DNA of 64,000 bases from a virus. The stretch is from the IMG/VR virus record IMGVR_UViG_3300042378_000602, one strand, 5' to 3'. Every line of letters begins with the position of its first letter. The stretch's first letter is position 1. Below are positions 20,701-54,309 of this stretch, piece by piece. Under the pieces are notes generated by a model, which was not told the origin of the DNA, searched no databases, and worked only from the letters and a program-made list of their open reading frames with translations. A program made the translations under genes and the position numbers.

Positions 20701-20912
20701 TTGCTCAGATGGGAAGATTACATCAGATAGGTCTAATTGCACAAAACGTAAGAATTCATTTCCCTGAAGCTGTTGGAATCGGTCCTGATGGATATTATTA
20801 CATTGACTACAAGAAATTAAATTCTGTTGTAGTTGAAGGTATAAAAGAACAACAAGTATTTATTGAAGAGATAACTAAACAAGTAGACGAATTAGAAATT
20901 AAATTGAGATAA
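17751..20912 (+). CDS. collagen-like (Gly-X-Y) tail fibre protein with C-terminal intramolecular chaperone (peptidase S74) domain
   Basis: about 850 aa of uninterrupted GXY triplets (many [12 protein letters not shown]); Cys-rich module; C-terminus [12 protein letters not shown]...[13 protein letters not shown]... of the S74 type. Confidence 0.8.
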
Positions 20913-23896
20913 TGCCATCTAATGTAATTATATATCCTACCGGTAGAACGTGGAACACTGACCCTCATTTTATTTTTGATGATGGAACTAATAAATTACA
21001 ATTCAACGTTTTAACTGACGCAATAAGTCTGTCTGCTGGGTCAATTTCAAATAATTTTGTAATTGGTACAAAAGGTTCAGACAATGGTGTCACAACCTCA
21101 GGGGCTTCCGCACAGTCACTATATTTCAACGCCTCACAATTCATAGGTTCTGGAGGTGTTTGGGTCGGACCAACTGCCGGTATCGCTGGTGCTCAGGGAG
21201 CTCAAGGTGCTCAGGGAGCCCAAGGTGGTCAGGGAGCTCAAGGAGCTCAAGGTGCAAATACAGGAGCTCAAGGTGCTACAGGTGCCCAAGGAGCAACAGG
21301 CGCACAAGGTGCGGCAAACACAACACAAGGTGCTCAAGGTACAATTGGGTCTCAAGGAGCTCAGGGTGCCACAGGAGCTCAGGGTGGAAATACGGGTGCT
21401 CAAGGAGCCACAGGAGCTCAAGGTAACCAAGGAGCTCAAGGTGCTCAAGGAGGAACAGTTGGAGCTCAGGGTGCTCAGGGTGGTCAGGGAGCTCAAGGTG
21501 CTCAAGGTGCTCAAGGTGCAAACACAGGTGCTCAGGGTGCGACAGGTCCCCAAGGAGCCCAAGGAGCGGTAGGTGCTACAGGAGGAGTTCAAGGTGCTCA
21601 AGGTGCCGTCGGTGCCACAGGTGATTTAGGTGCTCAGGGAGCTCAAGGAGCCAATACCGGAGCCCAAGGTGCTCAAGGTGCACAGGGAACTCAAGGTGCA
21701 CAAGGTGCTCAGGGAGGAAATACTGGTGCACAAGGTGCTCAGGGTACTCAGGGTACACAAGGTGCTACAGGTGCTCAAGGAGGAGTACAAGGTGCTCAAG
21801 GTGCTATAGGTACTACAGGACCACAAGGTGCTCAAGGGGCCCAAGGGGCAAACACAGGAGCTCAAGGTGCTCAAGGTGGTCAAGGTGCTCAAGGAGCTCA
21901 AGGTGCTCAAGGAGGAGTACAAGGTGCTCAAGGGGCTACAGGTCCTACGGGGGTACAAGGAGCACAAGGTGCACAAGGAGGAGTACAAGGAGCACAAGGT
22001 GCAACAGGACCTCAAGGAGCTCAAGGGGCTCAGGGATTACAAGGTGGACTTCAAGGTGCCCAAGGTGCAACAGGTGCTCAAGGTGCACAAGGTTCTACAG
22101 GTGCTCAAGGAGGTACCCAAGGAGCTCAAGGTGCCACAGGACCACAAGGTGCACAAGGAGCAATAGGAGCTCAAGGAGGAGTACAAGGTGCTCAGGGTGC
22201 AACAGGAGCAGCGGGAGCTCAAGGTGCTCAAGGAGCCCAAGGTGCAAATACAGGTGCTCAAGGCGCCACAGGACCTCAAGGTGCTCAGGGGGCGACAGGA
22301 GCCCAAGGGGGTGTACAAGGTGCTCAAGGCGCCACAGGTCCTCAAGGTGCTCAAGGTGCTCAGGGGGCTCAAGGTGCAAATACAGGAGCTCAGGGTGCTA
22401 CAGGTCCTCAAGGTGCTCAAGGTGCTCAGGGAGCCCAGGGTGCCAGTCCAGGTGCTCAGGGCGCTCAAGGTCCAAAAGGACCTCAAGGTGCTCAAGGAGC
22501 CCAAGGTGGAAGTGCAGGTGCCACGGGTGCGCAAGGTGCAACAGGTCCTCAAGGAGCTCAAGGTGCCCAAAGTGGTATAACAGGACAGGCAGGAGCTCAG
22601 GGTGCTACAGGTCCCCAAGGGGCACAAGGTGCTCAAGGTGGAAGTGCCGGTGCTACAGGAGCAGTCGGTGCACAAGGAGCTACAGGAGCACAAGGAGCCC
22701 AAGGTGCTAATCAAGGAGCACAAGGTGCTACGGGTGCTACAGGAGCTCAAGGTGCTCAAGGTGCTCAAGGTGCTAATCAAGGAGCCCAAGGTGCGACAGG
22801 TCCACAAGGTGCTCAGGGTTCACAGGGTGCACAAGGTGCTAATCAGGGAGCACAGGGGGCTCAAGGAGCTCAAGGTGCTCAAGGTTCTCAGGGAGCACAA
22901 GGAGCCAATCAGGGTGCACAAGGTGCTACAGGTCCACAAGGTGCACAAGGTGCAATTGGACCAAATAATACGACACAAGGTGCTCAAGGTGCTCAGGGAG
23001 GTCAAGGTACTCAGGGAAGTCAAGGAGCACAGGGTGCTAACCAAGGCGCTCAAGGGGCACCTGGAGTTCAAGGAGCTCAAGGAGCACAAGGTGCACAGGG
23101 TGCTAATCAAGGGGCTCAGGGAGCACCTGGAGTTCAAGGTGCTCAAGGTGCTCAAGGTTCTCAAAGTGCTACTTCGGGAGCACAAGGTTCTACAGGACCT
23201 CAAGGTGCTCAAGGTTCTACAGGACCCGGTCCTGGTCCGCAAGGAGCCCAAGGTCCACAAGGATTGACTGGAGGTGGAGGGAACACAGGTGCACAAGGGT
23301 CCCAAGGAGCTACAGGAGCCACGGGTCCTACAGGTGCTCCTGGTGGAACAGGAGCCACAGGTGCTCAAGGAGCCACAGGATTTGCTGGAAGTACTCAGGG
23401 TGCTCCAGGTGTACCAGGACCACAGGGGGCTCAAGGTCCGACAGGTGTTGGTGGTGCCACAGGCCCAACAGGCCCAACAGGTTTCAAGGGGAATACAGGC
23501 CCAACAGGCCCAACAGGTGCCACAGGTGCTCAGGGAGCACAAGGCGCTAAGTCAGATAAAAGATTAAAAGATAATATAGTTGAATTCAAAGAACCTCTCA
23601 CCCGTCTGAAACAAATCCAAGGTGTTAAATTTACTTGGGACCATGAACATCCTAAAATTAAATTTCATAAGCACCTGAATGCTAAAGAAGCGTTCACAGG
23701 TGATACTTATGGATTCATAGCTCAAGATGTAGAAAAAGTATTTCCTGAGATTGTTGACACTGACCCAACTGATGGATACAAATCTATGGATTATGGACTC
23801 TTGGTTAGTTTAGCCTTCGCATCAATTAAAGAGAATCAAAAAAGAATATTGTCAGTGAAAGATAGAATAAATAGATTAAAACAAGTAGTGAACTAA
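20912..23896 (+). CDS. collagen-like tail fibre protein with C-terminal S74 intramolecular chaperone domain
   Basis: GAQGAQGAT-type triplets across about 800 aa; C-terminus [12 protein letters not shown]...[16 protein letters not shown]; start overlaps upstream stop (TAATG). Confidence 0.8.
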
Positions 23897-26800
23897 TGGC
23901 ATCATACGTAGTATATTCAGGGACGAGTTATCTAAATGCGTGTAATTCTGTGGCATCACAGACTATTTATACACCGTGTCCATCACTAAGTGGAGGTTGT
24001 GTAGTCTATACAGATGCAGGTTATACTAATGTTATTACTTTCTCTCCATTATTACCTAATTTATATCTAAAGGATTCTGTTGATACAACGGTTTGGAAGA
24101 TAAATAGGACAGGAACTGTCACGGAGGTTAGAAAATGTACTGAATTTTCAGGTGATGAAAATATAATTGTTTATCCTGATGGAGCCAATTTTCAACTTAT
24201 AGATTCTGGAGGAACTGCCACTAACTGGTATATGGAGAATGGTGAGTTGAAATTTGGAACTTTAACTTCCACTTTAGCAAGAATAAGTACTTCCTATCCA
24301 AACCTCAGAGTCAGTGGGGGGTCAATAACACTTACTAACAAACTTGCAAATGCCTCGGGAGATTTAATAAATTCAACAGGATGGGTCGGAGCTAAATTAC
24401 CTCAAGGTCCAACGGGTGCTCAAGGTTCACAAGGTTCTACTGGTGCTCAAGGAGCTCAAGGGGGTCAAGGAGCACAGGGTACCCAAGGTTCAACAGGTGC
24501 CCAAGGTTCTCAGGGTGCTCAAGGGGGACAAGGTGCTCAAGGTGCTCAAGGGTCACAAGGACCTACAGGTGCACAAGGTTCACAAGGTGGTCAAGGTTCA
24601 CAAGGCTCACAAGGTTTTACAGGTGCTCAGGGTTCACAAGGAGCTCAAGGAGGACAAGGTGCTCAGGGTTCACAAGGAACTTTGGGACCCACAGGAGCTC
24701 AAGGTTCTCAAGGTGGTCAAGGAGCCCAAGGAGCCCAAGGTTCAACAGGTGCTCAAGGTTCGCAAGGAGCACAGGGTGGACAGGGCGCTCAAGGTTCACA
24801 AGGGGCTAAAGGTCTCACAGGTGCTCAAGGGGCACAAGGTGGACAAGGTGCCCAAGGTGCTCAAGGTTCCCAAGGTACAACAGGAGCCCAAGGTTCCCAA
24901 GGGGGACAAGGTGCTCAAGGTGCTCAAGGCGCAGTTGGTCCTACAGGTGCTCAAGGAGCTCAGGGTGGACAAGGGGCTCAAGGAGCTCAAGGGGCTGTCG
25001 GTCTCACAGGAGCTCAAGGAGCTCAAGGTGGGCAAGGTGCTCAAGGAGCACAAGGGGCTCTCGGTCCTACAGGAGCTCAAGGTTCCCAAGGTGGACAGGG
25101 TGCTCAAGGAGCACAAGGTTCACAAGGTTTAACAGGTGCGCAAGGGTCCCAAGGTGGTCAAGGAGCTCAAGGAGCTCAGGGAGGACAAGGTGCTCAAGGT
25201 GCCCAAGGTCCTAAAGGTCCACAAGGTGCTCAAGGAGCCCAAGGTGCTCAAGGTTCAACAGGAGCCCAAGGTTCCCAAGGTGGAACAGGAGCCCAAGGTG
25301 CTCAAGGTTCAACAGGAGCCCAAGGTTCACAAGGTTCACAAGGTGGAACAGGAGCTCAAGGAGCCCAAGGTTCAACAGGAGCCCAAGGTGCTCAAGGTTC
25401 CCAAGGAGGACAAGGTGCCCAAGGGGCTCAAGGTACAACAGGTGCCCAAGGAGCTCAAGGAGCTACAGGAGGTCAAGGTGCTCAGGGTTCTCAAGGACCC
25501 ACAGGAGCCCAAGGTTCTCAAGGTGCCGGAGGAGGACAAGGTGCACAAGGAGCTCAAGGTATAGTTGGAGCCCAAGGTGCTCAAGGTGGAGGTGGAGGAC
25601 AGGGTGCACAAGGAGCACAAGGAACGACAGGTCCCGTAGGTGCACAAGGTTCACAAGGTGGGCAAGGTGCTCAAGGTTCCCAAGGTGCACAAGGTGCCAC
25701 AGGAGCTCAAGGTTCTCAGGGCGTCGCCGGAGCTCAAGGTGCTCAAGGTGCTCAAGGAGCTGTTGGTAGTCAAGGTTCACAAGGAGGACAGGGTGCACAA
25801 GGAGCTCAAGGTTCACAAGGAGCTCAAGGTGCAACTGGTCCTGGTGGCGGACAAGGTGCTCAGGGAGCACAAGGAGCCACAGGTTCACAAGGTGCTCAAG
25901 GTGGAGGTGGTGGACAAGGTGCCCAAGGTGCTCAAGGGCCCGTCGGTTCACAAGGTTTTCAAGGAACAACTGGAGGTCAAGGTGCACAAGGTGCGCAAGG
26001 ACCTACTGGACCTACAGGTATCACAGGACCTAAAGGGGGTCAAGGTGCACAAGGTGCTCAGGGAGGACAAGGTGCACAGGGACCACAAGGTCATATCGGT
26101 GCAAACGGTGCAACTGGTGTTCCTGGTCCTATTGGTCCCAAAGGACCTACGGGTCCTACGGGAGGTCAAGGTGCTCAAGGAGCTCAAGGACCTGGTGGTG
26201 CTCAAGGGGCTCAAGGTCCTACGGGAGGTCAAGGTTCCCAAGGTGGAGGAGGAGCTCAAGGGGCTCAGGGTCCAACAGGACCTGGAGGTGCTCAAGGTGC
26301 TCAAGGAGCTCAAGGTCCCAAAGGTCCAATAGGTGGACAAGGTTCTCAAGGTCCCACAGGGGCTCAGGGTACCGCCGGAGGACAAGGTTCTCAAGGCGGT
26401 GGTGGTGCCCAAGGTGCTCAAGGTGCTCAAGGTCCGCAAGGAGGCCAAGGTGCTCAAGGCGGTGGTGGTGCCACAGGAGCTCAAGGACCTCAGGGGGGTC
26501 AAGGTGCCCAAGGACCACAAGGTGGTCAAGGTCCACAAGGTGCACAAGGTGCAACCGGTCCAAATGGTTTACAAGGTGCTCAAGGTGCACAAGGTACCAC
26601 TGGTTCTGACCTAAGATTAAAAAAGGACGTAAAAGAAATACAATCCCCACTAGAAAAAGTCCTGAAATTGAGAGGTGTTTCATTCTATTGGAATAAATTA
26701 AATGATGAAACATCCCAATCAGGTAAACATGATATTGGATTCATTGCCCAAGAAATAGGTCATATATTACCTGAATTGGTTTTCAAGAAAAACACCGAGA

Positions 26801-26940
26801 ACGCATATTTCATGGTAAAATATGCTGAAGTAATAGCTGTTTGTTTAGAAGCCATTAAAGAACAATCCTTGATTTTGGAATCTAAAGAAATAAAACTTGA
26901 TGAGTTAGAGACAATAGCCAAGGAAAGAGGACTTATTTAG
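23896..26940 (+). CDS. collagen-like tail fibre protein with C-terminal S74 intramolecular chaperone domain
   Basis: 165-aa unique N-terminus, then GAQGSQG triplets; C-terminus [12 protein letters not shown]...[16 protein letters not shown]; start overlaps upstream stop. Confidence 0.8.
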
Positions 26941-32621: not shown

Positions 32622-33323
32622 TTGAGTGGTATTTTGATTACTACGTTGCCTATTTTCTCTACAATGGAAACAAACAAGACAGATACGTGCAGTACATGCA
32701 AAAAAAGTGGGGAGATAGAAAATAATTATGGGCTGAATATTTCAGAGGAACACAAAACTTTTCTTTGGTTGTGGGCTAAAACCGGCACGTCCCATTTGAA
32801 ACAAAATATGAAATATTTTGGTTTCAATTTTTATATGTTCGATGGCGGTAAAAGAAGTTTTTTATCTAAAGGAATCACTCAGCAACACACTTGTCAATTA
32901 TTTGAAGGGCACCATGATTATAAGATGTTAGCTACGGCTAGAAATCCCTACTCAAGATATGTTTCTTTCTATATAATGGCAAAAAAGGATGAAGCAACAA
33001 TCGAAAATTTTGATGATTTTTTAGAAACACAAATATTTCATCATACAAATTTCGATTGTGTAACTTTTCACGATAGAATCCCTGATTATTTTGTTAGAGT
33101 TGAAAATTTGTTCGAGGACTATTCCAAAATTCCTTTCGTTGTTAAAAGTGATTATTATAAATCAGGACTTTTGGAAGAATTCTGTAATAAAAAAATAAAT
33201 AAATCAAAGTTTGAAGTTGATTGGAAAGATTATTATAATCAATCAATGGCTGATTTAGTTTTTTATAACACTCAAAATTATTTTGAAATCTTAGGTTACG
33301 ATAAAAATTCTTGGAAAAAATAA
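32622..33323 (+). CDS. PAPS-dependent sulfotransferase
   Basis: 5'-PSB-like WLWAKTGTSHL (compare PKSGTTW) and 3'-PB-like ATARNPYSRYVS (R-x-P-x-x-R-x-x-S). Confidence 0.7.
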   Translation: MSGILITTLPIFSTMETNKTDTCSTCKKSGEIENNYGLNISEEHKTFLWLWAKTGTSHLKQNMKYFGFNFYMFDGGKRSFLSKGITQQHTCQLFEGHHDYKMLATARNPYSRYVSFYIMAKKDEATIENFDDFLETQIFHHTNFDCVTFHDRIPDYFVRVENLFEDYSKIPFVVKSDYYKSGLLEEFCNKKINKSKFEVDWKDYYNQSMADLVFYNTQNYFEILGYDKNSWKK

Positions 33324-33329
33324 AAATAT

Positions 33330-33554
33330 ATGAATACTGAAATGGTCAATGGACCGATTCACTACGGTGGTGCGGATAATCCCTATGAGGTGATAAAAGT
33401 TTGTGAAGCGTGGGGTTTAGATAAGGACGCATATTTGTTCAATGTTGTAAAATATATTGCTCGTGCCGGTATCAAAGACCCCTCTAAAGAACTAGAAGAC
33501 CTTAAAAAGGCTCAATTTTATTTAGATAGAAGAATTAAAAATTTGGAAAAATGA
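33330..33554 (+). CDS. small phage-type hypothetical protein (DUF3310-like)
   Basis: PIHYGG...NVVKYIARAGIK...DLKKAQFYLD pattern common in phage genomes. Confidence 0.4.
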   Translation: MNTEMVNGPIHYGGADNPYEVIKVCEAWGLDKDAYLFNVVKYIARAGIKDPSKELEDLKKAQFYLDRRIKNLEK

Positions 33555-33991
33555 TTATTTGGCTAACAGGTCAACCTGGTTCGGGTAAAACAACTATCTG
33601 TGAACAGATTATGTCTATTCACACAGAGTTTTTCCATGTTGATGGGGATGACCTAAGAGATTTATTTGACAATAAAGATTACTCTAAAACAGGTAGAAGA
33701 AAGAATATTGAACTTGCTCAACAAATATCTCAATATCTTCACAACCAGGGAGTTGATGTTTTAGTATCTTTAGTTTCCCCATATAAAGACCAAAGGGATA
33801 GGTTCAAGGAAAAGATGGGGGATGATTTGAGAGAAGTCTACGTTCATACATCAGAAAAAAGAGGTAGAGAACAATTCTTTGTTAAAGAATACAATGAACC
33901 AACAGAAAACTATCTTGAGATTGATACAACCAATGAAAGTATAGTTGAGTCAGCAAAAAAAGTTTTAGATTATGCGAAAAATTCACGTTGA
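33551..33991 (+). CDS. cysC: adenylylsulfate (APS) kinase
   Basis: P-loop IWLTGQPGSGKTT, HVDGDDLRD (compare LDGDNVR), VSLVSPYKDQRDRFKE (compare ISPYRADRD). Confidence 0.8.
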   Translation: MIIWLTGQPGSGKTTICEQIMSIHTEFFHVDGDDLRDLFDNKDYSKTGRRKNIELAQQISQYLHNQGVDVLVSLVSPYKDQRDRFKEKMGDDLREVYVHTSEKRGREQFFVKEYNEPTENYLEIDTTNESIVESAKKVLDYAKNSR

Positions 33992-34373
33992 GGGTGACCC
34001 GAAATTAAAAAATACTGGAGGTAAGCAATATTCTATGTTTGTGGGACGGTTCCAACCATTTCACGGGGGACATCGATGGATTGTGGATGAATGTCTGAAC
34101 GAAGGAAAAAATGTTTTAATTTGTATAAGAGATATTCAACCTGATGATAAAAATCCTTTTAGTGCTCAAGAAGTTGAATCCAATATCAAAAAAGAGTTGT
34201 GGAAATATTTGACCGACGAGAAAGTAAAAGTTATGATTATACCTGATATCGAATCTGTCAATTTTGGTAGAGGTGTTGGTTATGATATAATCGAACACAT
34301 ACCACCTCAAGAGGTTGGGGAGATATCTGCAACAAAAATTAGAGAAGAATTAAAAAAAGAAGGAAAATTATAA
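33972..34373 (+). CDS. cytidylyltransferase-superfamily nucleotidyltransferase (NadM/NMNAT-type HxGH motif)
   Basis: GRFQPFHGGH near the N-terminus, C-terminal ISATKIR; 133 aa. Confidence 0.55.
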   Translation: MRKIHVEGDPKLKNTGGKQYSMFVGRFQPFHGGHRWIVDECLNEGKNVLICIRDIQPDDKNPFSAQEVESNIKKELWKYLTDEKVKVMIIPDIESVNFGRGVGYDIIEHIPPQEVGEISATKIREELKKEGKL

Positions 34374-35227
34374 TGCAAACTAATAAGATATATCAAGGTG
34401 ATTGTATTGAGGTTATGAAAACATTTCCCGAAAATTCAATTGACCTCATAGTAACATCTCCACCCTATGGTGTAGGAATCGATTATGACACTTTTGAAGA
34501 CGACATCCCTTTTGAAGATTATAAATTGTTTTCAACAAACTGGATGACAGAAGCTTTCAGAGTGTTGAAGGAAGATGGGAGAATTGCTTTGAACATTCCA
34601 TATGAAATAAATCGTCAGAGTCAGGGTGGAAGAATTTTCATGGCGTCTGAACTTTGGCGGATAATGCAGATAATTGGATTCAAGTTTTTCGGGATTGTTG
34701 ACCTAAAAGAAAATTCTCCTCATAGGAGTAAAACCACCGCATGGGGTTCTTGGATGTCACCATCCGCACCGTACATTTACAACCCCAAGGAGTGTGTTAT
34801 TTTGGCGTACAAGAAAAACCACATAAAGAAAGTAAAAGGTCAACCAGAGTGGGTAGGAATCCCTGAGGAGGTCACCAACGAAGAGGGAAAGACCCGAACT
34901 AAAATGATGTATACTGAAGAACAGAAAAGAGAGTTCATGGATTTAGTTTACGGGGAGTGGGATTATTTTGCCGACACGAAACAATTGACAAAGGCAACAT
35001 TTTCATTAGATATTCCTTTAAAGGCAATAAAAATTTTAACTTATAAAAATGATTTGGTTCTTGACCCTTTTGCTGGTAGTGGAACAAGTTTGGTTGCTGC
35101 AGTTATTTCCGACCGTAATTGGATTGGTATCGAGCTTAGTGAAAACTACTGTGGAGTCGCTCAAAAACGAGTACAACATTTCATAGATAAAAAAAACCAA
35201 CCTGAACTTGATTTTGAAAAGGGGTAA
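34373..35227 (+). CDS. DNA methyltransferase, beta-class (N6A/N4C)
   Basis: DLIVTSPPYG (motif IV) N-terminal and DPFAGSGTS (motif I) C-terminal. Confidence 0.85.
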   Translation: MQTNKIYQGDCIEVMKTFPENSIDLIVTSPPYGVGIDYDTFEDDIPFEDYKLFSTNWMTEAFRVLKEDGRIALNIPYEINRQSQGGRIFMASELWRIMQIIGFKFFGIVDLKENSPHRSKTTAWGSWMSPSAPYIYNPKECVILAYKKNHIKKVKGQPEWVGIPEEVTNEEGKTRTKMMYTEEQKREFMDLVYGEWDYFADTKQLTKATFSLDIPLKAIKILTYKNDLVLDPFAGSGTSLVAAVISDRNWIGIELSENYCGVAQKRVQHFIDKKNQPELDFEKG

Positions 35228-35241
35228 TACCCCTTTTTTTC
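35219..35241 (+). terminator. intrinsic terminator
   Basis: aagggg-taata-cccctt plus ttttttt immediately after the MTase stop. Confidence 0.6.
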
Positions 35242-35272
35242 TTTTCAGTATATTTATAATTAAATTATTTTG

Positions 35273-35644
35273 ATGACTGAAGAATTGATAAAGAAACTCG
35301 TTCAGATGCAACTTCAATGGAAGTTTTTACATTGGCAAACTTTTGGGGATGCTAAACACAGAGTTTATGGAGAAATTTACGATGGTTTAGGTGACCTGAT
35401 TGATGAGTTTACTGAAACCATGATGGGAAAGTATGGTAGACCTAAGTTTGATGATGAGTTTGCTTTGATGTTTCAAGATATATCAAGTCTCAGTATTCAG
35501 AACTTTGTCGATGGAATAGTTGAATTTTTGGTTTCTATGTCTGAAGAATTGGACCCAAAATACGATACTGACTTGTTGAATATCAGAGATGAGATGCTCG
35601 GATTGATAAATAAATCAAAATTCCTTTTAACACTTAAATACTAA
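35273..35644 (+). CDS. hypothetical protein
   Basis: ATG at 35273 (track used TTG at 35270); TATATTTATA at 35249-35258 upstream. Confidence 0.45.
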   Translation: MTEELIKKLVQMQLQWKFLHWQTFGDAKHRVYGEIYDGLGDLIDEFTETMMGKYGRPKFDDEFALMFQDISSLSIQNFVDGIVEFLVSMSEELDPKYDTDLLNIRDEMLGLINKSKFLLTLKY

Positions 35645-36009
35645 TGAAGAAAATTGTCAGACTTACCGAAACAGATTTGGAAAGAATCGTAACAAGGGTT
35701 ATAAATGAACAAAATGAAACAAGAAGTTTCATTAGAGCAATACAAAGATTTTTAATTGATAAAAAAATTACCGGAGACAATAAAAAACCTCTAACCGTTG
35801 ACGGTAGAACTGATAATAATTTGACCTCTCAAACGGCACAGGCAATATCAAAATACCAATCTATGATAGGAGTTTATCCTGCGGATGGAGTTTGGGAAAT
35901 AAATACTTGGGAGAAAATGCCGAAGGAAGACCAAAAAAAGTTAAAAAAACTGATGGCTGAAGAAGGTGACATTTTCGATAAATTCTTACATTGGATGGGT
36001 TGGGATTGA
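35644..36009 (+). CDS. putative peptidoglycan-binding domain protein
   Basis: LTVDGRTDNNLTSQTAQAISKYQSMIGVYPADGV resembles PG_binding_1 (L..DG.FG..T..AV..FQ...GL..DG). Confidence 0.4.
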   Translation: MKKIVRLTETDLERIVTRVINEQNETRSFIRAIQRFLIDKKITGDNKKPLTVDGRTDNNLTSQTAQAISKYQSMIGVYPADGVWEINTWEKMPKEDQKKLKKLMAEEGDIFDKFLHWMGWD

Positions 36010-37403
36010 TGAAAAAAATTTTAAAAGAAACAGGTATAAGAGACATTTCGGCTTTGAGGAAGAGATATCCCAAAGCCGAAATTTATTTTCACCAAGACTT
36101 AGACGGTGTCACTACCGCTATAGCGATGAAAAAATATCTTGAGGACAATGGGATTGAAGTTGTTGGTGCACATATAATTCAATATGGTGACAAAGAGTTT
36201 GCTGTAAAAAAAAATGATGCCGAAGGTGACACGATGCCTGTGCTAGTCGATTTTGCTCACGGGAAGCCGATGTTTAAAATTCACACGGACCACCACGATA
36301 AACAAGTTGGTGCTGAAAAAGAAACATCCAAATCATTTAGACAAGCTCGTTCTAACGTTGAAACAATATCTCAAATTGTTTCACCTAAAGATTTATTTCC
36401 ATCTTCAGACATACGTCTGATAAGCACTGTTGATTCTGCAGATTTCGCTAGAAATGAAATTACTCCCGAGGATGTAATAAATTACATTTTTAGATTTGAT
36501 AAAGAGAAACCTCTACAAAAGAACAAAATGCTTTTGGGATTGGTTATAAATAAACTTATTTTAGCCTTCAAGAACAGACGTGGGTTTATGGAAAATCTTG
36601 TAATGGATTCTGAGCCATCTCTGCTTTCGATTCTCACGAACATAAGAAAGTGGATGAAAGAAACAGGGGCTGAACAACCCGAAAAATTACAATCCCATTC
36701 TCAAGATTATTCACAAAGAATGAAATCTTATCATGGTTTGGAAGTAGATGGGAGTATTTTAACTCAGTACGGTGGTGGGGATATGAGGAAAGCAGGTTCC
36801 TATGACAGATACACCCCTTTCAAGAACAATCCTGATGCGGATTTTTTGATTATGATTTGGCCTATGGGATTGTTACAAGTTTCGTGTAATCCATTCAAAA
36901 AAGATAGAGAACTCAAAGGTGTGAATCTCGGTGAAATTGCACAAGAGGTTTTATCAAAATGGAAAGATAAATTACAATCAAGGGTAATACCCTTATCAAC
37001 AATCAAATGGATTAGTGAAACTTCGGTGAACCCTGAAAGTGTAGGTTTCACATTTAAAGATTTTGATGCTCTTTATGGTGGTAAAATTCAATATATGCAA
37101 GGTGGTAAAGAAATTTTGTCACAAATAAAGGAAATGATGAACAAACCTTTTGTTAAACTTACGGATGAAGAAAAAAATATTTTAGACAAATTAGGAATCA
37201 ATGCTTGGGAACTACTTCAGTCCATGTCAGGTGGACATAAATGTATTACAAACATAAGTGGTTTAAATTATTTAGGTAGAAGTAAGAGACCGCCTCAAGG
37301 GAACTATAGATGGGACCCTGAAAAGGAAGATGCTCCATACATTAAATTTCTTAAAATGTTAGCATCAGAATTCAAAAAAACATTGAAATCCAAAATTCAC
37401 TAA
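35991..37403 (+). CDS. DHH-family phosphoesterase (NrnA / pAp-phosphatase-like)
   Basis: motif I HQDLDGVTTA, motif II PVLVDFAHG, motif III KIHTDHHD. Confidence 0.6.
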   Translation: MDGLGLMKKILKETGIRDISALRKRYPKAEIYFHQDLDGVTTAIAMKKYLEDNGIEVVGAHIIQYGDKEFAVKKNDAEGDTMPVLVDFAHGKPMFKIHTDHHDKQVGAEKETSKSFRQARSNVETISQIVSPKDLFPSSDIRLISTVDSADFARNEITPEDVINYIFRFDKEKPLQKNKMLLGLVINKLILAFKNRRGFMENLVMDSEPSLLSILTNIRKWMKETGAEQPEKLQSHSQDYSQRMKSYHGLEVDGSILTQYGGGDMRKAGSYDRYTPFKNNPDADFLIMIWPMGLLQVSCNPFKKDRELKGVNLGEIAQEVLSKWKDKLQSRVIPLSTIKWISETSVNPESVGFTFKDFDALYGGKIQYMQGGKEILSQIKEMMNKPFVKLTDEEKNILDKLGINAWELLQSMSGGHKCITNISGLNYLGRSKRPPQGNYRWDPEKEDAPYIKFLKMLASEFKKTLKSKIH

Positions 37404-37438
37404 AATGGTTAGAATTTCTGACTAAAATCTTCAAAAGA

Positions 37439-37789
37439 TTATCTTATTACATAATCCACCCTATCACCTTCATTGATATCTAAATCCCAACAGGTCCCAC
37501 CCTGAACCTCGAACACAACATTTCCAGGACCACAATAAGACATACAATCATCCTCTTCACAAGGAGGACAATCGTGATGAATTTTTGTTATAATATTATC
37601 TTTGATTATTATAATATCCAAATCAATAATACAATTTTTCATCCAAAAACATTGTTCCTTTCCACCCATAAGAAATAACAATCCCTGAAAATCATCATCA
37701 AATACTTTTCCCATCATCCCTTTCATTTGAGATTTTTTATCCAACAAAACCTTTGATTTAAATTCGTTATTTTTTATCTTTACAATCAT
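37439..37789 (-). CDS. hypothetical Cys-rich protein
   Basis: minus-strand ORF with CPPCEEDDC and HHDC motifs. Confidence 0.4.
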   Translation of the reverse strand: MIVKIKNNEFKSKVLLDKKSQMKGMMGKVFDDDFQGLLFLMGGKEQCFWMKNCIIDLDIIIIKDNIITKIHHDCPPCEEDDCMSYCGPGNVVFEVQGGTCWDLDINEGDRVDYVIR

Positions 37790-37803
37790 ATTTAATAAAT
37801 ACT

Positions 37804-38214
37804 ATGAAAAAAAGTTATGCGGGTGTAGTGGTAAAACACAAAAAGAAAATTTTATTTTGTAAAAGAAGTTCTAAAGTAGATTATCCAGGTGTTTGGTCAA
37901 TTCCTGGAGGTACAATGGAGGAAGGCGAGTCTCCCATCCAAACAGCACGTAGAGAGTTTTTTGAAGAAATGGCTGTTGACATAGATAGTGAAACATTGAA
38001 CAAAGTTGGTGTAATTCCAAGATATTCGAGAGACGGTAAGAAGTTGAAGGGTCAGATGCATGTCTTTGAGACAGAACCAATTGAAAAACTCATTCCTGAT
38101 TTATCAATTGCGATTGACGGTGAAGAACATACTGAATGTGGTTATTATACTCTCGAAGAAATGCCACCTTCCAAAATTGGAGAGAACCTATACAATCTTT
38201 TAAAAAATATGTGA
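37804..38214 (+). CDS. Nudix hydrolase
   Basis: Nudix box GGTMEEGESPIQTARREFFEEMAV (GG-x5-E-x7-REuxEExGu). Confidence 0.85.
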   Translation: MKKSYAGVVVKHKKKILFCKRSSKVDYPGVWSIPGGTMEEGESPIQTARREFFEEMAVDIDSETLNKVGVIPRYSRDGKKLKGQMHVFETEPIEKLIPDLSIAIDGEEHTECGYYTLEEMPPSKIGENLYNLLKNM

Positions 38215-38488
38215 TATGATTTGGTATATGATTGTTGGTTTAGTTTTCACAGGTATTGTAATTTGGTTTGAGTTACGTGAAGAAAAAGAAAAAAATCTTT
38301 GAAAAAATATTTTCACCAAAGGTTACTTTTTTCACTTTTCGGTATATTTATATGTTCTTACCCGAAAGGGTGAACATCCCCACAGATTCAAGTTTTCAAC
38401 CGAGAGGTTGGTAAAAAAACCTGAATCATACGAGACAGAAAAAGTCTCAAAAAAAGTCCCACAAGTTTGGTGTTTCAAAAAAATGTCT

Positions 38489-38496
38489 TATCTTTG
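38489..38496 (+). promoter_or_regulatory. Bacteroidetes-type promoter (-7 TATCTTTG, -33 TTG at 38467-38469)
   Basis: TAnnTTTG with about 20-nt spacer; roughly 100 nt upstream of the tRNA-like element; 3' arm of the 10-bp inverted repeat 38455-38464/38494-38503 overlaps it. Confidence 0.5.
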
Positions 38497-38599
38497 TGGG
38501 ACTTTATTATCAAAAGAAGTTCTTTAACATATTTCTACTCAAGGTTCAACCAGAGCATGACTTGGATGGTGACACGGGGACTTGAGTAGTTTTATTATA

Positions 38600-38672
38600 G
38601 GGCGAGCGGGAGGTAAGGTATCTCATTGGTCTCATAAGCCAATTGAACTTGGTTCAATTCCAAGGCGTCGCA
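38600..38672 (+). tRNA. tRNA-Met(CAU)-like element with imperfect acceptor stem (possible pseudo-tRNA or tRNA-like domain)
   Basis: T-arm cttgg-ttcaatt-ccaag; anticodon arm ttggt-cTCATaa-gccaa (U33, CAT, A37); 5-nt variable loop; G18G19 in D-loop; acceptor pairs only 4-6 bp (gcga(g)cg vs gcgtcgc). Confidence 0.4.
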
Positions 38673-38679
38673 ACAATAC

Positions 38680-39820
38680 AGGTGAAGACTGTGGTGGAAC
38701 CCCACGGTATATGAATCCCAAAGACGCCGTCTTGATTCGCGGTATCAGAGCGGGGAGGGTATAGTTACTATAAGTCAGGAGTAATTAACCAACGACGAAA
38801 ATGTAACCACCAATGTAGGAATATGTTGGTCATGATGTACAAAAGGGTACAAAAAGCCTGTAAATTTTTTATAAAAAACTCTTATAAAATTTGACAGTCT
38901 GAAAATGACTTCTTATCTTTGTAAGACAATTGAGGGAAATCGTTTCCGAATGTTCGGAGTAAAGATATTTCGGTTTCCTTCAATCTTTGATAGTTCTTTG
39001 ATTCAAGATATTGGCCGCCTATGGTCGTTAAATAAACTACGAAAGTAGTATAAAGTAGGAACCCCTGGTTTGGTGGTTCCCGCGGTTTCCAAAAGGGAGC
39101 TCGAGTAGGCAAGCAGGATATCACAACACCTTTAGTACCGAGGGTAACACTGTAGGGAACGTGGTGTGGTGACCAAGCGATTCGGGTCGTTTGGTTGAGG
39201 TCGGAAGACCAACAAGAATCACCTGTAGAATCGATGTAAGAAGTGGTAGTATCCACTGTCACAATTGCGTCATTCAATATCAAAGTTGACTTAAAAACCG
39301 AAAGGTAAGTTTTATTACAGGTGGTGCTGATAGAACCTTAGCAAATGCTCTACCAAGAGGTCTGTTATGAAGTTGACTCGAAGTATGGAGGTGGGGACAC
39401 TTCAGAGGGTAGTTTAGTATCGGGTCGTTCAAAAGATGACTTGGCTTCAGACGGGCCACTACCTTCATAATCCGTAAACCAACTTTGGTCTATGCAATGT
39501 CCAAAACATTAATTAAATCAAGGAAAAGTGCTCGTCAGTTGTGTGTGACAGGTCACTACATAGTAATGAGATGTTCATTGCCGTGAAGGGTCCCAAGCCC
39601 GACACGATTTTCACGAAAGTTCTCTAATCCCGCAAGGATGAATTGGCTCGGCAGGGTCGAAGAGTGATGAGTAATGGGAGAGTTGCAGACAACTTCAGGA
39701 TTGGTTAATCTAATTGACCGTGACTGAGAGTTACTTCTCAAAAGGAAGTGGAAACAGAGGGAACCAAATAATCCTCCTAAAGACTCTTGTCAAGACTTGT
39801 ATTCTCAGAGTTTTCGCCTA
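38680..39820 (+). ncRNA. large GC-enriched structured non-coding region (candidate ornate large ncRNA, GOLLD/ROOL-like, or unknown ribozyme/intron-like RNA)
   Basis: about 1.1 kb with no credible ORF; GC clearly above the window average; many local hairpins with GNRA-like loops (for example ggtcGGAAgacc); internal promoter at 38914; strong terminator at 39821-39852; next to the tRNA-like element. Confidence 0.4.
38914..38921 (+). promoter_or_regulatory. Bacteroidetes-type promoter (-7 TATCTTTG, -33 TTGACA at 38891-38896) inside the non-coding region
   Basis: TAnnTTTG with 20-nt spacer to TTGACA. Confidence 0.45.
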
Positions 39821-39852
39821 ACCCTGACCGTCTCTACGGTTGGGGTTTTTTA
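39821..39852 (+). terminator. intrinsic terminator (10-bp stem with G-U pairs plus U-tract)
   Basis: accctgaccg-tctcta-cggttggggt plus tttttt; ends the non-coding transcript, abuts the stop of minus-strand gene 39854-41062. Confidence 0.6.
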
Positions 39853-45146: not shown

Positions 45147-45671
45147 ATGATTGAGGTTTTTGATGAGTTTCTCACCCCTGAGGAAATAACTGAGTTGTTC
45201 AAAACTCTAAGGGAGAGTTCTTGGATTTTGGAAGAAAAGGTCCCTTATCTTTCCGAAGTTCAATTAGAGGGAGGTGCTGATATTGGTTATATAAAAGAGA
45301 TACCTGAGAACACCATATATTGGAAGATTTTGGGTCGATTACATTCTTTACCAATAATATCAGGAAAATACAAATTCTTTTCAGCATTCCGAAATGCATA
45401 CAAGAGAGGAGATGTTACAGCTCTCCATACAGATGAGTCAGATATCACAGCACTTTTATATGGTAATCCCAAATGGAACATAAATTGGGGTTCGGAAACC
45501 ATTTTTACTGAAAGTTTATCACCTGATACAGAGATAATTGCGAGCATAATACCCAAACCTGGTAGGTTGGTAATTTTCGATTCTTCTATCCCACATTCAG
45601 GTAGACCACCAAGTTCAAGTTTTGCAAACCACAGATATTCAGTGGCTTATAACTTCAAAAAAATAATTTAA
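45147..45671 (+). CDS. 2OG-Fe(II) oxygenase, prolyl-4-hydroxylase-like
   Basis: ALHTDES (HxD), ITALLYGNPKWN..WGSETIF, GRLVIFDSSIPHSG (distal His), HRYSVAYNF (RxS). Confidence 0.6.
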   Translation: MIEVFDEFLTPEEITELFKTLRESSWILEEKVPYLSEVQLEGGADIGYIKEIPENTIYWKILGRLHSLPIISGKYKFFSAFRNAYKRGDVTALHTDESDITALLYGNPKWNINWGSETIFTESLSPDTEIIASIIPKPGRLVIFDSSIPHSGRPPSSSFANHRYSVAYNFKKII

Positions 45672-47674: not shown

Positions 47675-48922
47675 ATGAAGACAAAAAAACCGAGTGCGAT
47701 AGTTTATAATTGGTACAAACAGGGTGAGGAATTATTACAAACTTCAATTTATTCTGAAGAAGGGCTTTGGGAAGAAATCATGGTTTATTCTTTACCTTAC
47801 ACAGATAATGTGGCCGAAGATTATTCCAAGTATAGACCTGATATTATTGTTTCGATTGGGACTCACGTGAATGTACCTCATTATCAATTACAACAAATTT
47901 ATGTTTTCATAGAAAATCCTTTGGGTGATTATGATTTGGCTAACACGATATGTAAGGAAGCTATTTACAAAAACCTTACATACCATAGACCACGATTTTC
48001 GGTCTTCACACCAGCATATAAGACTTATGAAAGAATTAAAAGAACTTATGAGAGTCTGAGGTCTCAAGTTTGGACTAATTGGGAATGGGTCGTAGTAGAC
48101 GATTCGCCTGACGAAATAACATGGAACCTATTGAAAGAAATTTCTTCGAAAGACTACAGGGTTAAAATTCATCGTATTTACCCGTTATCGGGTGGTAATG
48201 TAGGTTTGGCCAAACATAGAGCAGCTATGTTATGTGATGGTGATTGGTTGGTCGAGTTGGACCATGATGATACTTTGACCACAGAGTGTTTATCCACTTG
48301 TAATGATGCCATCATCAAATATCCTGATGCAGGATTTTTATATACGGATGTTTGTGAATTATATGAGGATGGTGAGATGAAATCTTATGACCATGATTGG
48401 ACAGGTGGTTGGTATGCAAGACATGATAATTTTTTTGATTTTGGTTATGCTGGTCACACTTGGGTTGAAGTAGATGGTAGAAAAATTTTGGCACACTGGT
48501 ACCCTGATATAAATCCATTATCAATAAGGTTCAATATATCCATGCCCGACCACGTGAGAATGTGGGAAAGAAACCTATATCACAAAATAGGTGGACACAA
48601 TAAACTTACTCCTGTTGCGGATGATTTGGAGATTATAATAAGAAGTTTTTTACATACACGGTTTATTCACGTAAAACGTGTCCTATATTTGCAATGGAAT
48701 AATCGTAACAGTACGGTTGATAATAATGCTCAAGATATAAATCGAAGAGCAAGAATTATTAGAGACTTTTATGATAAAGCAATCCACGAAAGAATTTTAT
48801 CCTTGGGATTCAAAGATTGGAATTGGGATGAAGAAAAACAAGAATCACAAAGATTCCAAAATCACGTGGCAATAAAAAAATATTTCGAAGAAGAAGAAGT
48901 AATGAATTACATTTATGAATAA
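47675..48922 (+). CDS. glycosyltransferase family 2
   Basis: GT-A N-terminal signature SVFTPAYKTYERIKRTYESLRSQ..WEWVVVDDSPDE and DxD (LDHDDT). Confidence 0.75.
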   Translation: MKTKKPSAIVYNWYKQGEELLQTSIYSEEGLWEEIMVYSLPYTDNVAEDYSKYRPDIIVSIGTHVNVPHYQLQQIYVFIENPLGDYDLANTICKEAIYKNLTYHRPRFSVFTPAYKTYERIKRTYESLRSQVWTNWEWVVVDDSPDEITWNLLKEISSKDYRVKIHRIYPLSGGNVGLAKHRAAMLCDGDWLVELDHDDTLTTECLSTCNDAIIKYPDAGFLYTDVCELYEDGEMKSYDHDWTGGWYARHDNFFDFGYAGHTWVEVDGRKILAHWYPDINPLSIRFNISMPDHVRMWERNLYHKIGGHNKLTPVADDLEIIIRSFLHTRFIHVKRVLYLQWNNRNSTVDNNAQDINRRARIIRDFYDKAIHERILSLGFKDWNWDEEKQESQRFQNHVAIKKYFEEEEVMNYIYE

Positions 48923-50078
48923 CAAACCAAAAATCTGTATGAACGCGATGGTAGGCAATGAAGCCAAAACCATCACAAGAATGTTAGAATCTGTTGCTCC
49001 ACACATTTCTTATTGGGTAATCCAATGTAATGGAAAAGAGGATAACACGAAAGAAATCATCGAGAAATTTTTTAATGAAAGAGGTATTCCTGGATTCACA
49101 TATGAGATAGATTGGAACTATCCAGGTTGGAATAGAAACCATACACTCCAAAGAGCCCTTCAAGCAAATCATGGTTGTGATTGGATTTTGAGAATGGATG
49201 CGGACGAAAGATTACAAATTGATGAAGATTTCGATTGGAATATTCTTTCTGACACCACTATTGATAGCTTCAATGTACCCGCATCTGCTGCAGATATAAA
49301 GTATTTCAGAACTTGGTTATGGAATGCTAAGTTACCATGGTTTTTTGCGGATGATAAACGTCACGAAACAATACATTTACCTGAAATCGGAGAAAGTTTT
49401 GTAAGAATAAATCTACCTTTCAGTTTTCGTCATTTAGTTTCCCAAGATGGAGAAACATGGCATGTTCCTCGTAAATTTCTGAGAGACGCTTTAGAATTGG
49501 AAATTGATAAAGTTGTTGGTAATAAAGTTAAAGATGACCCATATCATTTATGGTATATAGCTAAAAGTTATGCAGATTGTTATGGTAATCCTGATGAACT
49601 TCCATTTGGAAGACTTCACTCCGAAGAGTATGCTCGAAGAAGTATTTGGTATTACAATAGGTTTTTAGAACAAGTTCACGATTGGCATAATCAAAAAACC
49701 GCCACTCGTTTTGATGAAATGGCATACTTCGCATTCATCATGATGGGACAAGCCCTTCAATTTTTGGGTCAATTAGAAGATGCAATTCAACACTATTATT
49801 GGGCTGGACAATTTGCTCCAATGAGAAACGAACATTATATATATTTGAATTTCCTACTTCAAAGTTTGAATCGTAATGAAGAATTACTGAGAAATTTGGA
49901 TTATATGTTGTCTTCAGACAGAGTAAATCCTTGGCCAGGTTCTTCATTTTTGATTGAAACCAGAGCTTATTACGATACAAGTGATTTCTTGGTAAATTGG
50001 AAAAACGAAATAACCCAAAAATTGTCCGCTCCAACCGTATCAAATGATAGTTTTAGATTCGACCCGTCTCAATTTTGA
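48915..50078 (+). CDS. GT-A-fold glycosyltransferase-like protein with C-terminal helical repeat region
   Basis: ILRMDADERL (DxD) after an N-terminal Rossmann-like segment; start overlaps upstream stop. Confidence 0.5.
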   Translation: MNNKPKICMNAMVGNEAKTITRMLESVAPHISYWVIQCNGKEDNTKEIIEKFFNERGIPGFTYEIDWNYPGWNRNHTLQRALQANHGCDWILRMDADERLQIDEDFDWNILSDTTIDSFNVPASAADIKYFRTWLWNAKLPWFFADDKRHETIHLPEIGESFVRINLPFSFRHLVSQDGETWHVPRKFLRDALELEIDKVVGNKVKDDPYHLWYIAKSYADCYGNPDELPFGRLHSEEYARRSIWYYNRFLEQVHDWHNQKTATRFDEMAYFAFIMMGQALQFLGQLEDAIQHYYWAGQFAPMRNEHYIYLNFLLQSLNRNEELLRNLDYMLSSDRVNPWPGSSFLIETRAYYDTSDFLVNWKNEITQKLSAPTVSNDSFRFDPSQF

Positions 50079-53569: not shown

Positions 53570-53887
53570 ATGTCAACTCTACGTTCAGAACTATCCATTA
53601 GCTCAAGAACCACAGGATTTGCATCTCCTGCGGAATCTTATGTAGACAAACGTCTTGACCTGAATGACCTAATCATTCAGGACGTGCACACAACCTTTTA
53701 TTTTCAATATAAAGGTCCAAACACACTTGGAGTAAGGACAGGAAATATCCTCGTTATTGACCGTTCTATTGAGCCACACGAAGGAGATTTAGTTATTATC
53801 ACCGAGAAGGAATGTTTTAAGATTAGAAAATACGAAGGACAATCAAATGTTTGGGGAAGAGTAAATTGGATTTTAAATAAACTATAA
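53570..53887 (+). CDS. umuD: UmuD'-like SOS mutagenesis accessory protein, lacking catalytic Ser
   Basis: GFASPAESYVDKRLDLNDLIIQ...GNILVIDRSIEPHEGDLVII aligns to E. coli UmuD GFPSPAADYVEQRIDLNQLLIQ...[20 protein letters not shown]; GDSM serine replaced (GPNT). Confidence 0.6.
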   Translation: MSTLRSELSISSRTTGFASPAESYVDKRLDLNDLIIQDVHTTFYFQYKGPNTLGVRTGNILVIDRSIEPHEGDLVIITEKECFKIRKYEGQSNVWGRVNWILNKL

Positions 53888-53890
53888 TTT

Positions 53891-54109
53891 ATGATTGAAA
53901 TTTTGGGATGGGTTGCCACCTCAGCTGTGTTACTATCTTTTTTCTTTAAAGACATGTTAAAATTGAGAATTGCTAACTCAACGGGTGCAATTTTATGGTT
54001 GATTTATGCGTTACTCAAATCTGACTATCCTTTAATTGCGGTGAATACTGCAGTTCTTTTTGTCCATGGGTATTGGTTCATCTCAAACTATAAAACATGG
54101 AAGAATTAG
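53891..54109 (+). CDS. small membrane protein
   Basis: two TM helices. Confidence 0.35.
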   Translation: MIEILGWVATSAVLLSFFFKDMLKLRIANSTGAILWLIYALLKSDYPLIAVNTAVLFVHGYWFISNYKTWKN

Positions 54110-54309
54110 ATTTACATGGACTACTTCACATAGATGTACCACTCGAAGTTTTGAATTTTTTATACCTTCATCATGAAAGTTTTCCTGTGAAAATCATCAC
54201 AGGTAGGTCAACAAAGATGAATGAAATCGTCGTAGACATTTTAAAAAAAAACGGTTATCATTATGATGTTCCTGCGCACAATCCTGGTGAAATAATTGTA
54301 TTGTATTAA
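54097..54309 (+). CDS. hypothetical protein
   Basis: small ORF between the umuD-like and umuC genes. Confidence 0.35.
   Translation: MEELDLHGLLHIDVPLEVLNFLYLHHESFPVKIITGRSTKMNEIVVDILKKNGYHYDVPAHNPGEIIVLY

Follow-up and report, generated by a model that had tools for sequence, protein, structure and literature searches.

In rhizobia, the nodH and nodPQ genes place a dedicated sulfotransferase beside a dedicated unit of sulfurylase and adenosine 5′-phosphosulfate (APS) kinase, and sulfation of a specific glycan does not depend on the housekeeping cys genes. In 3′-phosphoadenosine 5′-phosphosulfate (PAPS) synthases (animal PAPSS1/2; bacterial Sat-CysC, e.g., Aquifex 2gks), an APS kinase is coupled or fused to an adenylyltransferase of the HxxH superfamily. 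In Methanothermococcus thermolithotrophicus, a DHH/DHHA1 phosphoesterase that hydrolyses adenosine 3′,5′-bisphosphate (pAp) is encoded near the genes for APS kinase and ATP sulfurylase (PMC10322725). Among viruses, annotated sulfotransferase-family genes are found in Synechococcus phages S-SKS1, S-SRM01, and S-SCSM1, in Ralstonia phage phiRSL1, and in giant viruses, and viral cysC has been catalogued as an unvalidated auxiliary metabolic gene and read as a part of assimilatory sulfate reduction. Here, we analyzed a gene block (positions 32622–38214) of IMG/VR virus record IMGVR_UViG_3300042378_000602, in a 64-kb stretch of DNA that is referred to below, as a whole, as the window. The region from approximately 32664 to 34373 is, in our judgment, fairly likely to represent a self-contained sulfation module, in which a small nucleotidyltransferase (hereafter, the transferase) would produce APS, a short APS kinase would convert APS to PAPS, and a predicted sulfotransferase (hereafter, ORF1) would use PAPS to sulfate an acceptor that is probably a glycan.

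Genes of the Putative Sulfation Module

All ten open reading frames (ORFs) that an earlier note on this DNA had listed for the block were found at the same coordinates. The motifs quoted there were also located in the sulfotransferase ORF (AKTGTSHL, 32775–32798; ARNPYSRYVS, 32937–32966), in the kinase (GQPGSGKTT, 33569–33595; HVDGDDLRD, 33635–33661; SPYKDQRDRF, 33776–33805), and in the DHH ORF described further below (HQDLDG, 36090–36107; VDFAHG, 36246–36263; TDHHD, 36285–36299). The genes at the 5′ end of the block are as follows:

32622..33323, + strand: predicted sulfotransferase (ORF1), no Pfam model; assigned from fold and motifs, likely start ATG 32664
33330..33554, + strand: DUF3310 small protein (Pfam DUF3310, 1.3e-12); overlaps the kinase start by 4 nt
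33551..33991, + strand: short CysC-type APS kinase, 146 aa (Pfam APS_kinase, 1.3e-17)
33972..34373, + strand: nicotinamide mononucleotide adenylyltransferase (NMNAT)-like HxGH nucleotidyltransferase (CTP_transf_like, 5e-7), with motifs GRFQPFHGGH, GRGVGY, and ISATKIR

Of the start/stop overlaps claimed previously, those at 33551 (4 nt, ATGA), 33972 (20 nt), and 34373 (1 nt) are present; the one at 35991 is conditional, since it measures 19 nt only if the downstream gene starts at a TTG codon and is replaced by a 2-nt gap if the ATG at 36012 is used. One additional overlap of 1 nt was found at 35644.

The Predicted Sulfotransferase ORF1

Because sequence searches with ORF1 were empty, its identity was resolved by structure prediction. 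No sulfotransferase family of Pfam (E ≤ 0.1), NCBIfam, or PHROGs was matched; nothing was found in the PDB with either the single sequence or a 44-sequence profile, and a tblastn search against 50,697 phage records gave no match. Among metagenomes, 52 homologues were identified (0/52 with a precomputed Pfam domain); these start with MET..., which favors ATG 32664 as the true start. The AlphaFold model of ORF1 (pLDDT 86) presents a P-loop-like α/β fold that matches PAPS-dependent sulfotransferases only, and a Foldseek search against viral models had as its best matches proteins of giant viruses and phages that are annotated as members of the sulfotransferase family. In this model, the loop WAKTGTS, which contains K53 and resembles a 5′-phosphosulfate-binding (5′-PSB) loop, sits between strand 46–49 and helix 56–63, while RNPYSRYVS, which contains R107 and S115 and resembles a 3′-phosphate-binding (3′-PB) motif, is found at the junction of strand 101–106 and helix 109–124; ORF1 presents both the 5′-PSB strand-loop-helix with its Lys and the 3′-PB Arg and Ser at a strand-helix junction. 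In the family alignment, H89, R107, N108, and P109 are invariant, K53 and S115 are conserved in ≥90% of sequences, and R107 and S115 are spaced by 8 residues. From SULT structures, we take K53 to be the 5′-phosphosulfate-binding Lys and Arg-x7-Ser to be the 3′-phosphate-binding motif. An hhalign comparison of the ORF1 family with canonical phage sulfotransferases aligned RNPYSRYVS with RDxRAxxSS at a probability of 9.5%, a value that serves as a check of the register only. ORF1 is, as judged from its predicted structure, a sulfotransferase of a family without a curated model, and would be active in sulfuryl transfer. The earlier note had proposed that a match to Sulfotransfer_1 or Sulfotransfer_3, or a fitting predicted structure, would identify this protein; the former was not obtained and the latter was, and its central proposal of a PAPS-type sulfotransferase adjoining an APS kinase is borne out by the fold and motifs of ORF1 together with the homology of the kinase.

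The association of the ORF1 family with the kinase–transferase pair recurs, in differing gene orders, across three phage lineages that are not related to one another, and two of these lineages share none of the marker genes of the lineage to which the window belongs. In the window, ORF1 is on the same strand as the kinase and 228 nt upstream of it. In locus L118, the order is GT1 glycosyltransferase, GT2 glycosyltransferase, NAD-epimerase, methyltransferase, kinase, transferase, ORF1-family sulfotransferase (overlapping the transferase by 4 nt), Sulfotransfer_1, and DegT. In locus L103, an ORF1-family sulfotransferase is followed by kinase, transferase, and DUF2061, and the group is set among Laminin_G tail-like genes. 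This locus, which is on a marine phage contig, also carries a flavin-dependent tryptophan-halogenase-family gene (4006–5490; Pfam 6.7e-115) immediately after these four genes. The ORF1 family also adjoins DUF2061 in places where the kinase–transferase pair is not present. Some phages (L010–L012, L037, and L040) encode two or three ORF1-family paralogues in tandem, which suggests more than one acceptor or more than one position to be sulfated.

The Short APS Kinase

The kinase matched Pfam APS_kinase with 64.7 bits (gathering cut-off 21.1), and all 21 of its PDB matches are APS kinases or PAPS synthases, the second best being the M. thermolithotrophicus APS kinase (8a8h). A profile of the kinase family matched the PDB at 2e-21, with an alignment over the whole PAPSS1 kinase domain. 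The Walker A, DGD..R, YS...R..N, and SPY motifs can be seen when the kinase is aligned to 2yvu, 8a8h, and 5cb6, so that both the significant profile match and the alignment of motif residues with solved APS kinases, proposed previously as a check on this ORF, were obtained. The catalytic and substrate motifs are, furthermore, invariant in 31 proteins in which kinase and transferase are fused; the roles of these residues are presumably those known from the P. chrysogenum and human APS kinase structures. Over its full length, the kinase is 52% identical to a 144-aa kinase encoded in a Flavobacteriales cysD-cysN-kinase operon, and orthologues hold the position of cysC in such operons (cysD-cysN-kinase in L183; kinase-DUF2061-cysD-cysN in L198). 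Because this 144-aa orthologue sits at the cysC position of cysDN operons, the short 146-aa kinase is, on the basis of sequence and context, predicted to be a working enzyme of the CysC type.

The Kinase–Transferase Pair

The transferase is the obligate, often fused partner of the kinase. In PHROG 10255, the first half corresponds to the kinase and the second half to the transferase, and a search with the concatenated pair identified many single proteins of 255–300 aa that cover 98–100% of both at ~50% identity; these fusions include gp32 of Xylella phage Salvo and AAY80_227 of Stenotrophomonas phage DLP6. Reverse fusions, in which the transferase is N-terminal to a full-length canonical APS kinase (Pfam E 1e-40 to 1e-56), were also found. 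The pair is encoded in >515 IMG/VR stretches, nearly always as the kinase directly followed by the transferase, and the transferase family comprises 487 clusters (50% identity, E ≤ 1e-10). A blastn search of the kinase–transferase DNA against phages gave no match. Beyond viruses, the pair or a fusion was found in at least 332 cellular loci, in taxa that include Pelagibacteraceae (SAR11), SAR86, Marinimicrobia, Halobacteria, Marine Group II (MGII) archaea, Acidobacteriota, Planctomycetota, Omnitrophota, candidate phyla radiation (CPR) bacteria, and others.

The best structural and sequence relatives of the transferase are archaeal NMNAT and NadM-Nudix proteins. This relationship, a Nudix gene 3.4 kb downstream, and an N-terminal motif shared with the NadM-Nudix proteins of T4-like phages are the points in favor of reading the transferase as a true NMN adenylyltransferase that, with the Nudix protein and a nicotinamide riboside kinase, would provide NadR/NadM-like NAD+ salvage against NAD-depleting defences. 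We consider this reading very unlikely. The best NCBIfam model for NMNAT scored 41.5 bits against a cut-off of 127, with every other NMNAT model likewise far under its cut-off and only the generic cyt_tran_rel domain passing; the alignment to NMNATs is limited to the first ~60 residues, and the transferase is 35–45 residues shorter than these enzymes. Its partner is specifically an APS kinase, including the full-length canonical ones in the reverse fusions, and the genes around it encode sulfotransferases, CysQ-like proteins, CysH, and DUF2061, not NAD enzymes. On the identity of the kinase and these sulfur-pathway neighbors, a place for the transferase in a NadM-Nudix salvage pair was downgraded.

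Three observations led us to assign the transferase to sulfate activation, namely its fusion to the kinase, its distribution relative to CysDN, and its occurrence in a row with sulfite reductase and CysH. Genes for CysD and CysN adjoin the kinase in 7/7 loci that contain the kinase only, in 1/50 loci that contain kinase plus transferase, and in none of the viral loci retrieved; no Sat motif was found near any retrieved locus, cellular or viral. In a metagenome-assembled genome (MAG) of Nitrospiraceae (L160), genes for sulfite reductase, PAPS_reduct (CysH), and a transferase that is 53% identical to that of the window are arranged in a row on the same strand. From this context, the transferase most likely acts as the ATP sulfurylase (ATP + sulfate → APS + pyrophosphate), and kinase and transferase together most likely represent a compact PAPS synthase. 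The earlier statement that the virus relies on the host for ATP sulfurylase only is probably wrong, since a conserved and often fused HxGH transferase that replaces ATP sulfurylase would make the enzyme of the host dispensable. Whether NMNAT-derived transferases of ~115–130 aa found a third, minimal class of ATP sulfurylases is a proposal for which we see even chances.

Gene Neighborhoods of the Pair

The retrieved viral pair loci were dereplicated at 80% kinase identity, resulting in 55 groups, and the ORFs within 6–7 kb were clustered. A sulfotransferase was found within 7 kb of the pair in 27 of these 55 groups (21 with a canonical Sulfotransfer_3/_1 protein and six with the ORF1 family); phage records in general seldom contain a sulfotransferase (10 and 0 of 50,697, ~0.02% overall). 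DUF3310 is located directly 5′ of the kinase in 13/55 groups, and is frequently fused to nucleotide kinases in PHROGs. In 41/55 groups, a gene for DUF2061, a small (~70 aa) membrane protein with two helices (loci L053–L127; e.g., L109, 8068–8286), is found 3′ of the transferase and overlaps the end of the transferase gene. DUF2061 is also encoded in the Flavobacteriales kinase-DUF2061-cysD-cysN operons (e.g., L198, 5478–5696) and in a nodH/nodP/nodQ locus of Mesorhizobium, a rhizobial genus, and looks like an uncharacterized component of sulfate activation.

Among 23 cellular loci, considering the three nearest genes on each side, Sulfotransfer_3 was the commonest Pfam family (9/130 proteins), followed by glycosyltransferases and Inositol_P (the CysQ family); genes with IMPase/CysQ motifs lie immediately beside the fusion in MGII archaea, and likewise in a Methanosarcinales MAG. 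In a Nomurabacteria MAG (L141, 3368–5236), the gene upstream of a kinase–transferase fusion resembles, from its translation, a sulfotransferase with a C-terminal Nudix box.

These neighborhoods bear on whether the kinase, together with the transferase, could be an auxiliary gene for assimilatory sulfate reduction that raises host PAPS for CysH and cysteine synthesis, with the sulfotransferase being incidental. Viral cysC has been catalogued in this sense, cultured phages carry the fusion without a nearby sulfotransferase, and the Nitrospiraceae transferase lies within a row of assimilatory genes. We nevertheless judge this explanation to be unlikely, given a sulfotransferase within 7 kb in about half of the viral groups as compared to ~0.02% of phage records, the same-strand location of ORF1 immediately upstream of DUF3310 and the kinase in the window, and the association of the ORF1 family with the pair in three lineages; furthermore, no homologue of CysH or sulfite reductase was found in any of the viral loci retrieved.

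Genes that recur near the viral pair include GT9-like, GT25, GT1/GT4, and GT2 glycosyltransferases, FkbM methyltransferases, and a tail sheath gene. In other phages, the genes around the pair encode glycosyltransferases, sugar methyltransferases, NDP-sugar enzymes, and tail proteins, and by this context the target of sulfation is probably a glycan. The alternative that the sulfotransferase modifies nucleic acid or nucleotides, which would represent a new DNA or RNA modification, draws on the 1-nt overlap between the transferase gene and a DNA methyltransferase (MTase) gene in the window, on a setting among early genes, and on Salvo, DLP6, and P0307, in which the fusion or transferase is found amid replication and nucleotide genes. 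The contexts that are informative show glycosyltransferases, sugar enzymes, and tail genes, however; orphan MTases are common in phages, and the MTase of the window is specific to its lineage. We know of no precedent for enzymatic DNA sulfation, and we consider this alternative very improbable.

In the pathway that we propose for the sulfation module, the NMNAT-like transferase would condense ATP and sulfate to APS, and the short CysC-type kinase, by its homology and the presence of orthologues in cysDN operons, would phosphorylate the 3′-OH of APS to yield PAPS. The sulfotransferase, for which fold and motifs are seen, would then transfer the sulfuryl group of PAPS onto an acceptor, leaving pAp as the by-product; the acceptor is likely to be a sugar within a glycan that the phage makes, carried either by virion proteins or by the envelope of the host.

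Several observations weigh against this pathway. With regard to the kinase, the TIGR00455 score of 69.9 bits is under the cut-off of 138.7, and hence below the NCBIfam equivalog level; the lid segment is ~15–20 residues shorter, and the Pfam match covers profile positions 4–112 of 152. The transferase presents no sequence match to Sat and neither of the Sat motifs (QxRNPxHxxH and GRDHAG). All seven kinase-only loci belong to one order, Flavobacteriales, and the complementarity with CysDN therefore does not represent seven independent events; one locus (L154) carries cysDN as well as a transferase–kinase fusion, and the row with sulfite reductase and CysH was seen only in L160 among the retrieved loci. 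With regard to the acceptor, the assignment to a glycan derives from neighbors in other lineages, and the 64-kb window contains neither a DUF2061 gene nor a canonical sulfotransferase. Finally, the retrieved flanks of Salvo, DLP6, and P0307 contain no sulfotransferase.

A further sulfur-related gene was observed in Salvo, where an annotated cysteine dioxygenase is encoded 3.5 kb upstream of the gp32 fusion (L047, 1381–2076 and 5578–6324); this is a second sulfur-metabolism annotation in a phage without a visible sulfotransferase.

The Downstream Genes of the Block

The remainder of the block contains the following features:

34373..35227, + strand: orphan N4/N6 DNA methyltransferase with an SPPY motif (N6_N4_Mtase, 6.5e-32)
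35216..35238, + strand: terminator-like GC-rich hairpin, 10-pair stem followed by TTCTTTT; consensus match only
35991..37403, + strand: divergent DHH/DHHA1-type phosphoesterase (Pfam DHH, 1e-3, below cut-off)
37439..37789, − strand: DUF192, between the DHH and Nudix genes
37804..38214, + strand: Nudix hydrolase (NUDIX, 5.7e-18)

The earlier note had described the block as co-directional. Most of its genes are indeed on the plus strand, but the row is broken by DUF192 on the minus strand, and the hairpin is located at the stop of the MTase gene, where it probably ends, as suggested by its sequence, a transcription unit that extends from the sulfotransferase to the MTase. The MTase is probably co-transcribed with the upstream genes. 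About 30 related contigs share the synteny of the block, from six genes upstream of the sulfotransferase through the Nudix gene, a conservation that reflects descent. Across lineages, the synteny that had been proposed as a test holds for the sulfotransferase, kinase, and transferase, but the MTase, DHH, and Nudix genes accompany them in the lineage of the window only. Specifically, the genes for the MTase, DUF5856, a peptidoglycan (PG)-binding protein, DHH, DUF192, and Nudix are each found with the pair in ≤11/55 groups, all of which are relatives of the window (11/55 for the MTase and 8/55 for DHH). A single operon spanning the whole block was ruled out by the hairpin at 35216–35238, the minus-strand DUF192, and the restriction of the synteny to one lineage.

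The MTase is an ordinary orphan DNA methylase, with no evidence that links it to sulfation, and the genes for DUF5856, the PG-binding protein, DHH, DUF192, and Nudix are neighbors by descent. The previous inclusion of the MTase, DHH, and Nudix genes in the sulfation module is not supported, both for this reason and because DHH homologues occur in phages without the kinase.

Of the profile matches expected for the downstream enzymes and the transferase, those to NUDIX and CTP_transf_like were obtained, while the DHH protein reached only 19.7 bits against Pfam DHH (cut-off 28.1) and gave no match to DHHA1. Neither the single sequence of this 470-aa protein, which contains insertions, nor a profile matched any DHH enzyme in the PDB at a meaningful E-value. 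Its homologues, including those in megaphages, nevertheless keep H34, D36, D38, D87, D100-H101-H102, D148, and G414-G415-H416 invariant, and the protein encoded at 35991–37403 presents DHH motifs I–IV as well as the DHHA1 motif. A reading in which the whole block, with DHH and Nudix, serves one pathway and DHH is a pAp phosphatase draws on this conservation of the metal-binding set and of the DHHA1 GGH motif, on the synteny in the related contigs, and on the DHH-family pAp phosphatase encoded beside ATP sulfurylase and APS kinase genes in M. thermolithotrophicus (PMC10322725). It also draws on P0307 (L213, 4051–5349), where a 432-aa phage protein joins the transferase family to a DHH/DHHA1 domain (motifs DHHH and GGGGH); the genes around this fusion include ThyX, NUMOD3, and SNase, and no nearby called gene presented a match to the APS-kinase Pfam family. 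The synteny is confined to one lineage, however, and no DHH-like gene was found near the pair in cellular loci. Two phages of 635–642 kb (LR745206 and LR756502) encode DHH homologues that have neither the kinase nor the transferase nor a sulfotransferase within 9 kb, and their genomes gave no tblastn match to APS kinase; in LR745206, a Nudix gene is again found near the DHH gene, without sulfation genes nearby. Along with the hairpin and the minus-strand gene that divide the block, and the absence of sequence similarity between the DHH protein and any solved DHH enzyme, these findings make a single pathway doubtful, albeit the most credible of the alternatives considered here. The disposal of pAp by DHH, as proposed previously, has a precedent in the archaeal enzyme, which has been solved, but its link to the pair is limited to the lineage of the window; removal of pAp or pyrophosphate by this protein is at best a tentative assignment.

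Other Features of the Window

A set of glycan genes at 47675–51162 and 61452–62108 encodes two GT2 glycosyltransferases, a UDP-galactopyranose mutase (GLF, 1.4e-78), and an FkbM methyltransferase. These genes are located 13–28 kb downstream of the sulfation module, and it is possible that they make the acceptor for sulfation. Three consecutive ORFs of ~1000 aa with collagen-like G-x-x repeats are found at 17751–26940 on the plus strand, with a GC content >50% as compared to ~31% for the genome, and a 2-oxoglutarate (2OG)-Fe(II) oxygenase is encoded at 45147–45671. The latter may hydroxylate prolyl or lysyl residues of the collagen-repeat proteins; that these proteins form glycosylated fibers is speculation.

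The ORF-poor stretch at 38215–39850 (GC 0.40) is explained by a GOLLD RNA (RF02032) at 39405–39811 on the plus strand, 1.2 kb downstream of the Nudix gene, which matched the full model with 314.7 bits (gathering cut-off 150), and by a match to the tRNA model upstream of it (38602–38672, plus strand; 33.1 bits), which was not called by ARAGORN. By eye, translations also include UmuD-like and Y-family polymerase-like ORFs, a sigma-70-like factor, and a DnaJ-like protein (53570–55515, 2027–2824, and 10534–11451); these fit a large phage. DHH homologues occur in phages of 635–735 kb.

Significance and Comparison with Known Systems

Sulfation alters the charge and recognition of glycans, and a phage with both the donor pathway and the transferases could place sulfated sugars on its virion or on the host surface, whatever the sulfur regulation of the host; such surfaces would have consequences for adsorption, for superinfection exclusion, and for recognition by lectins or the immune system. 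If the transferases do form a third class of ATP sulfurylases, viral “cysC” genes would mostly be parts of glycan-sulfation modules and not assimilatory auxiliary genes, and a new scoring would be needed for genomes now listed as incapable of sulfate activation. The transferase also represents a candidate enzyme for the first step of sulfate activation in very abundant marine lineages (SAR11 and MGII archaea), whose sulfur metabolism is currently deduced by scoring genomes for the known cys and sat genes.

The statement in the earlier note that this is not a described phage function is overstated, as annotated examples of both phage sulfotransferases and viral cysC exist; these annotations differ from the present locus in being separate entries without a described function. 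The pairing itself was not found in the openly searchable literature, from which subscription journals lie outside: this literature contained no account of the combination of kinase, transferase, DUF2061, and sulfotransferase or of the ORF1 family, and no description of a sulfurylase of the transferase type. Dedicated PAPS synthesis with sulfotransfer is already known from nodPQ/nodH, and the pair unit and the ORF1 family were not found described.

Of the known systems, the archaeal NMNATs (MJ0541, NadM) are related to the transferase by sequence and structure, but the transferase of the window appears to lack their C-terminal strand-helix-strand, has an invariant GRGVGY in place of the region after DIE, scores far under the family cut-offs, and has neighbors from the sulfur pathway rather than the NAD pathway. 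The M. thermolithotrophicus cluster resembles the window in that a DHH/DHHA1-type gene is located 2 kb from the kinase, and differs from it in that the DHH protein of the window presents no detectable similarity to solved DHH enzymes and is unlinked to the kinase outside its lineage. As in PAPS synthases, an APS kinase is joined to an adenylyltransferase; the viral fusions have the kinase at the N-terminus, an order shared with PAPSS, and the kinase aligns over the whole kinase domain of PAPSS1. The nodPQ/nodH system shares with the viral loci the side-by-side arrangement of sulfotransferase and donor synthesis, as well as DUF2061, which is present in a nod locus and follows the viral pair in most groups. 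It differs in that NodP and NodQ are CysD/CysN-type subunits with a canonical CysC, whereas the window, which is from a phage and does not include DUF2061, encodes an NMNAT-like transferase of ~130 aa, a short kinase, and a predicted sulfotransferase without a Pfam model.

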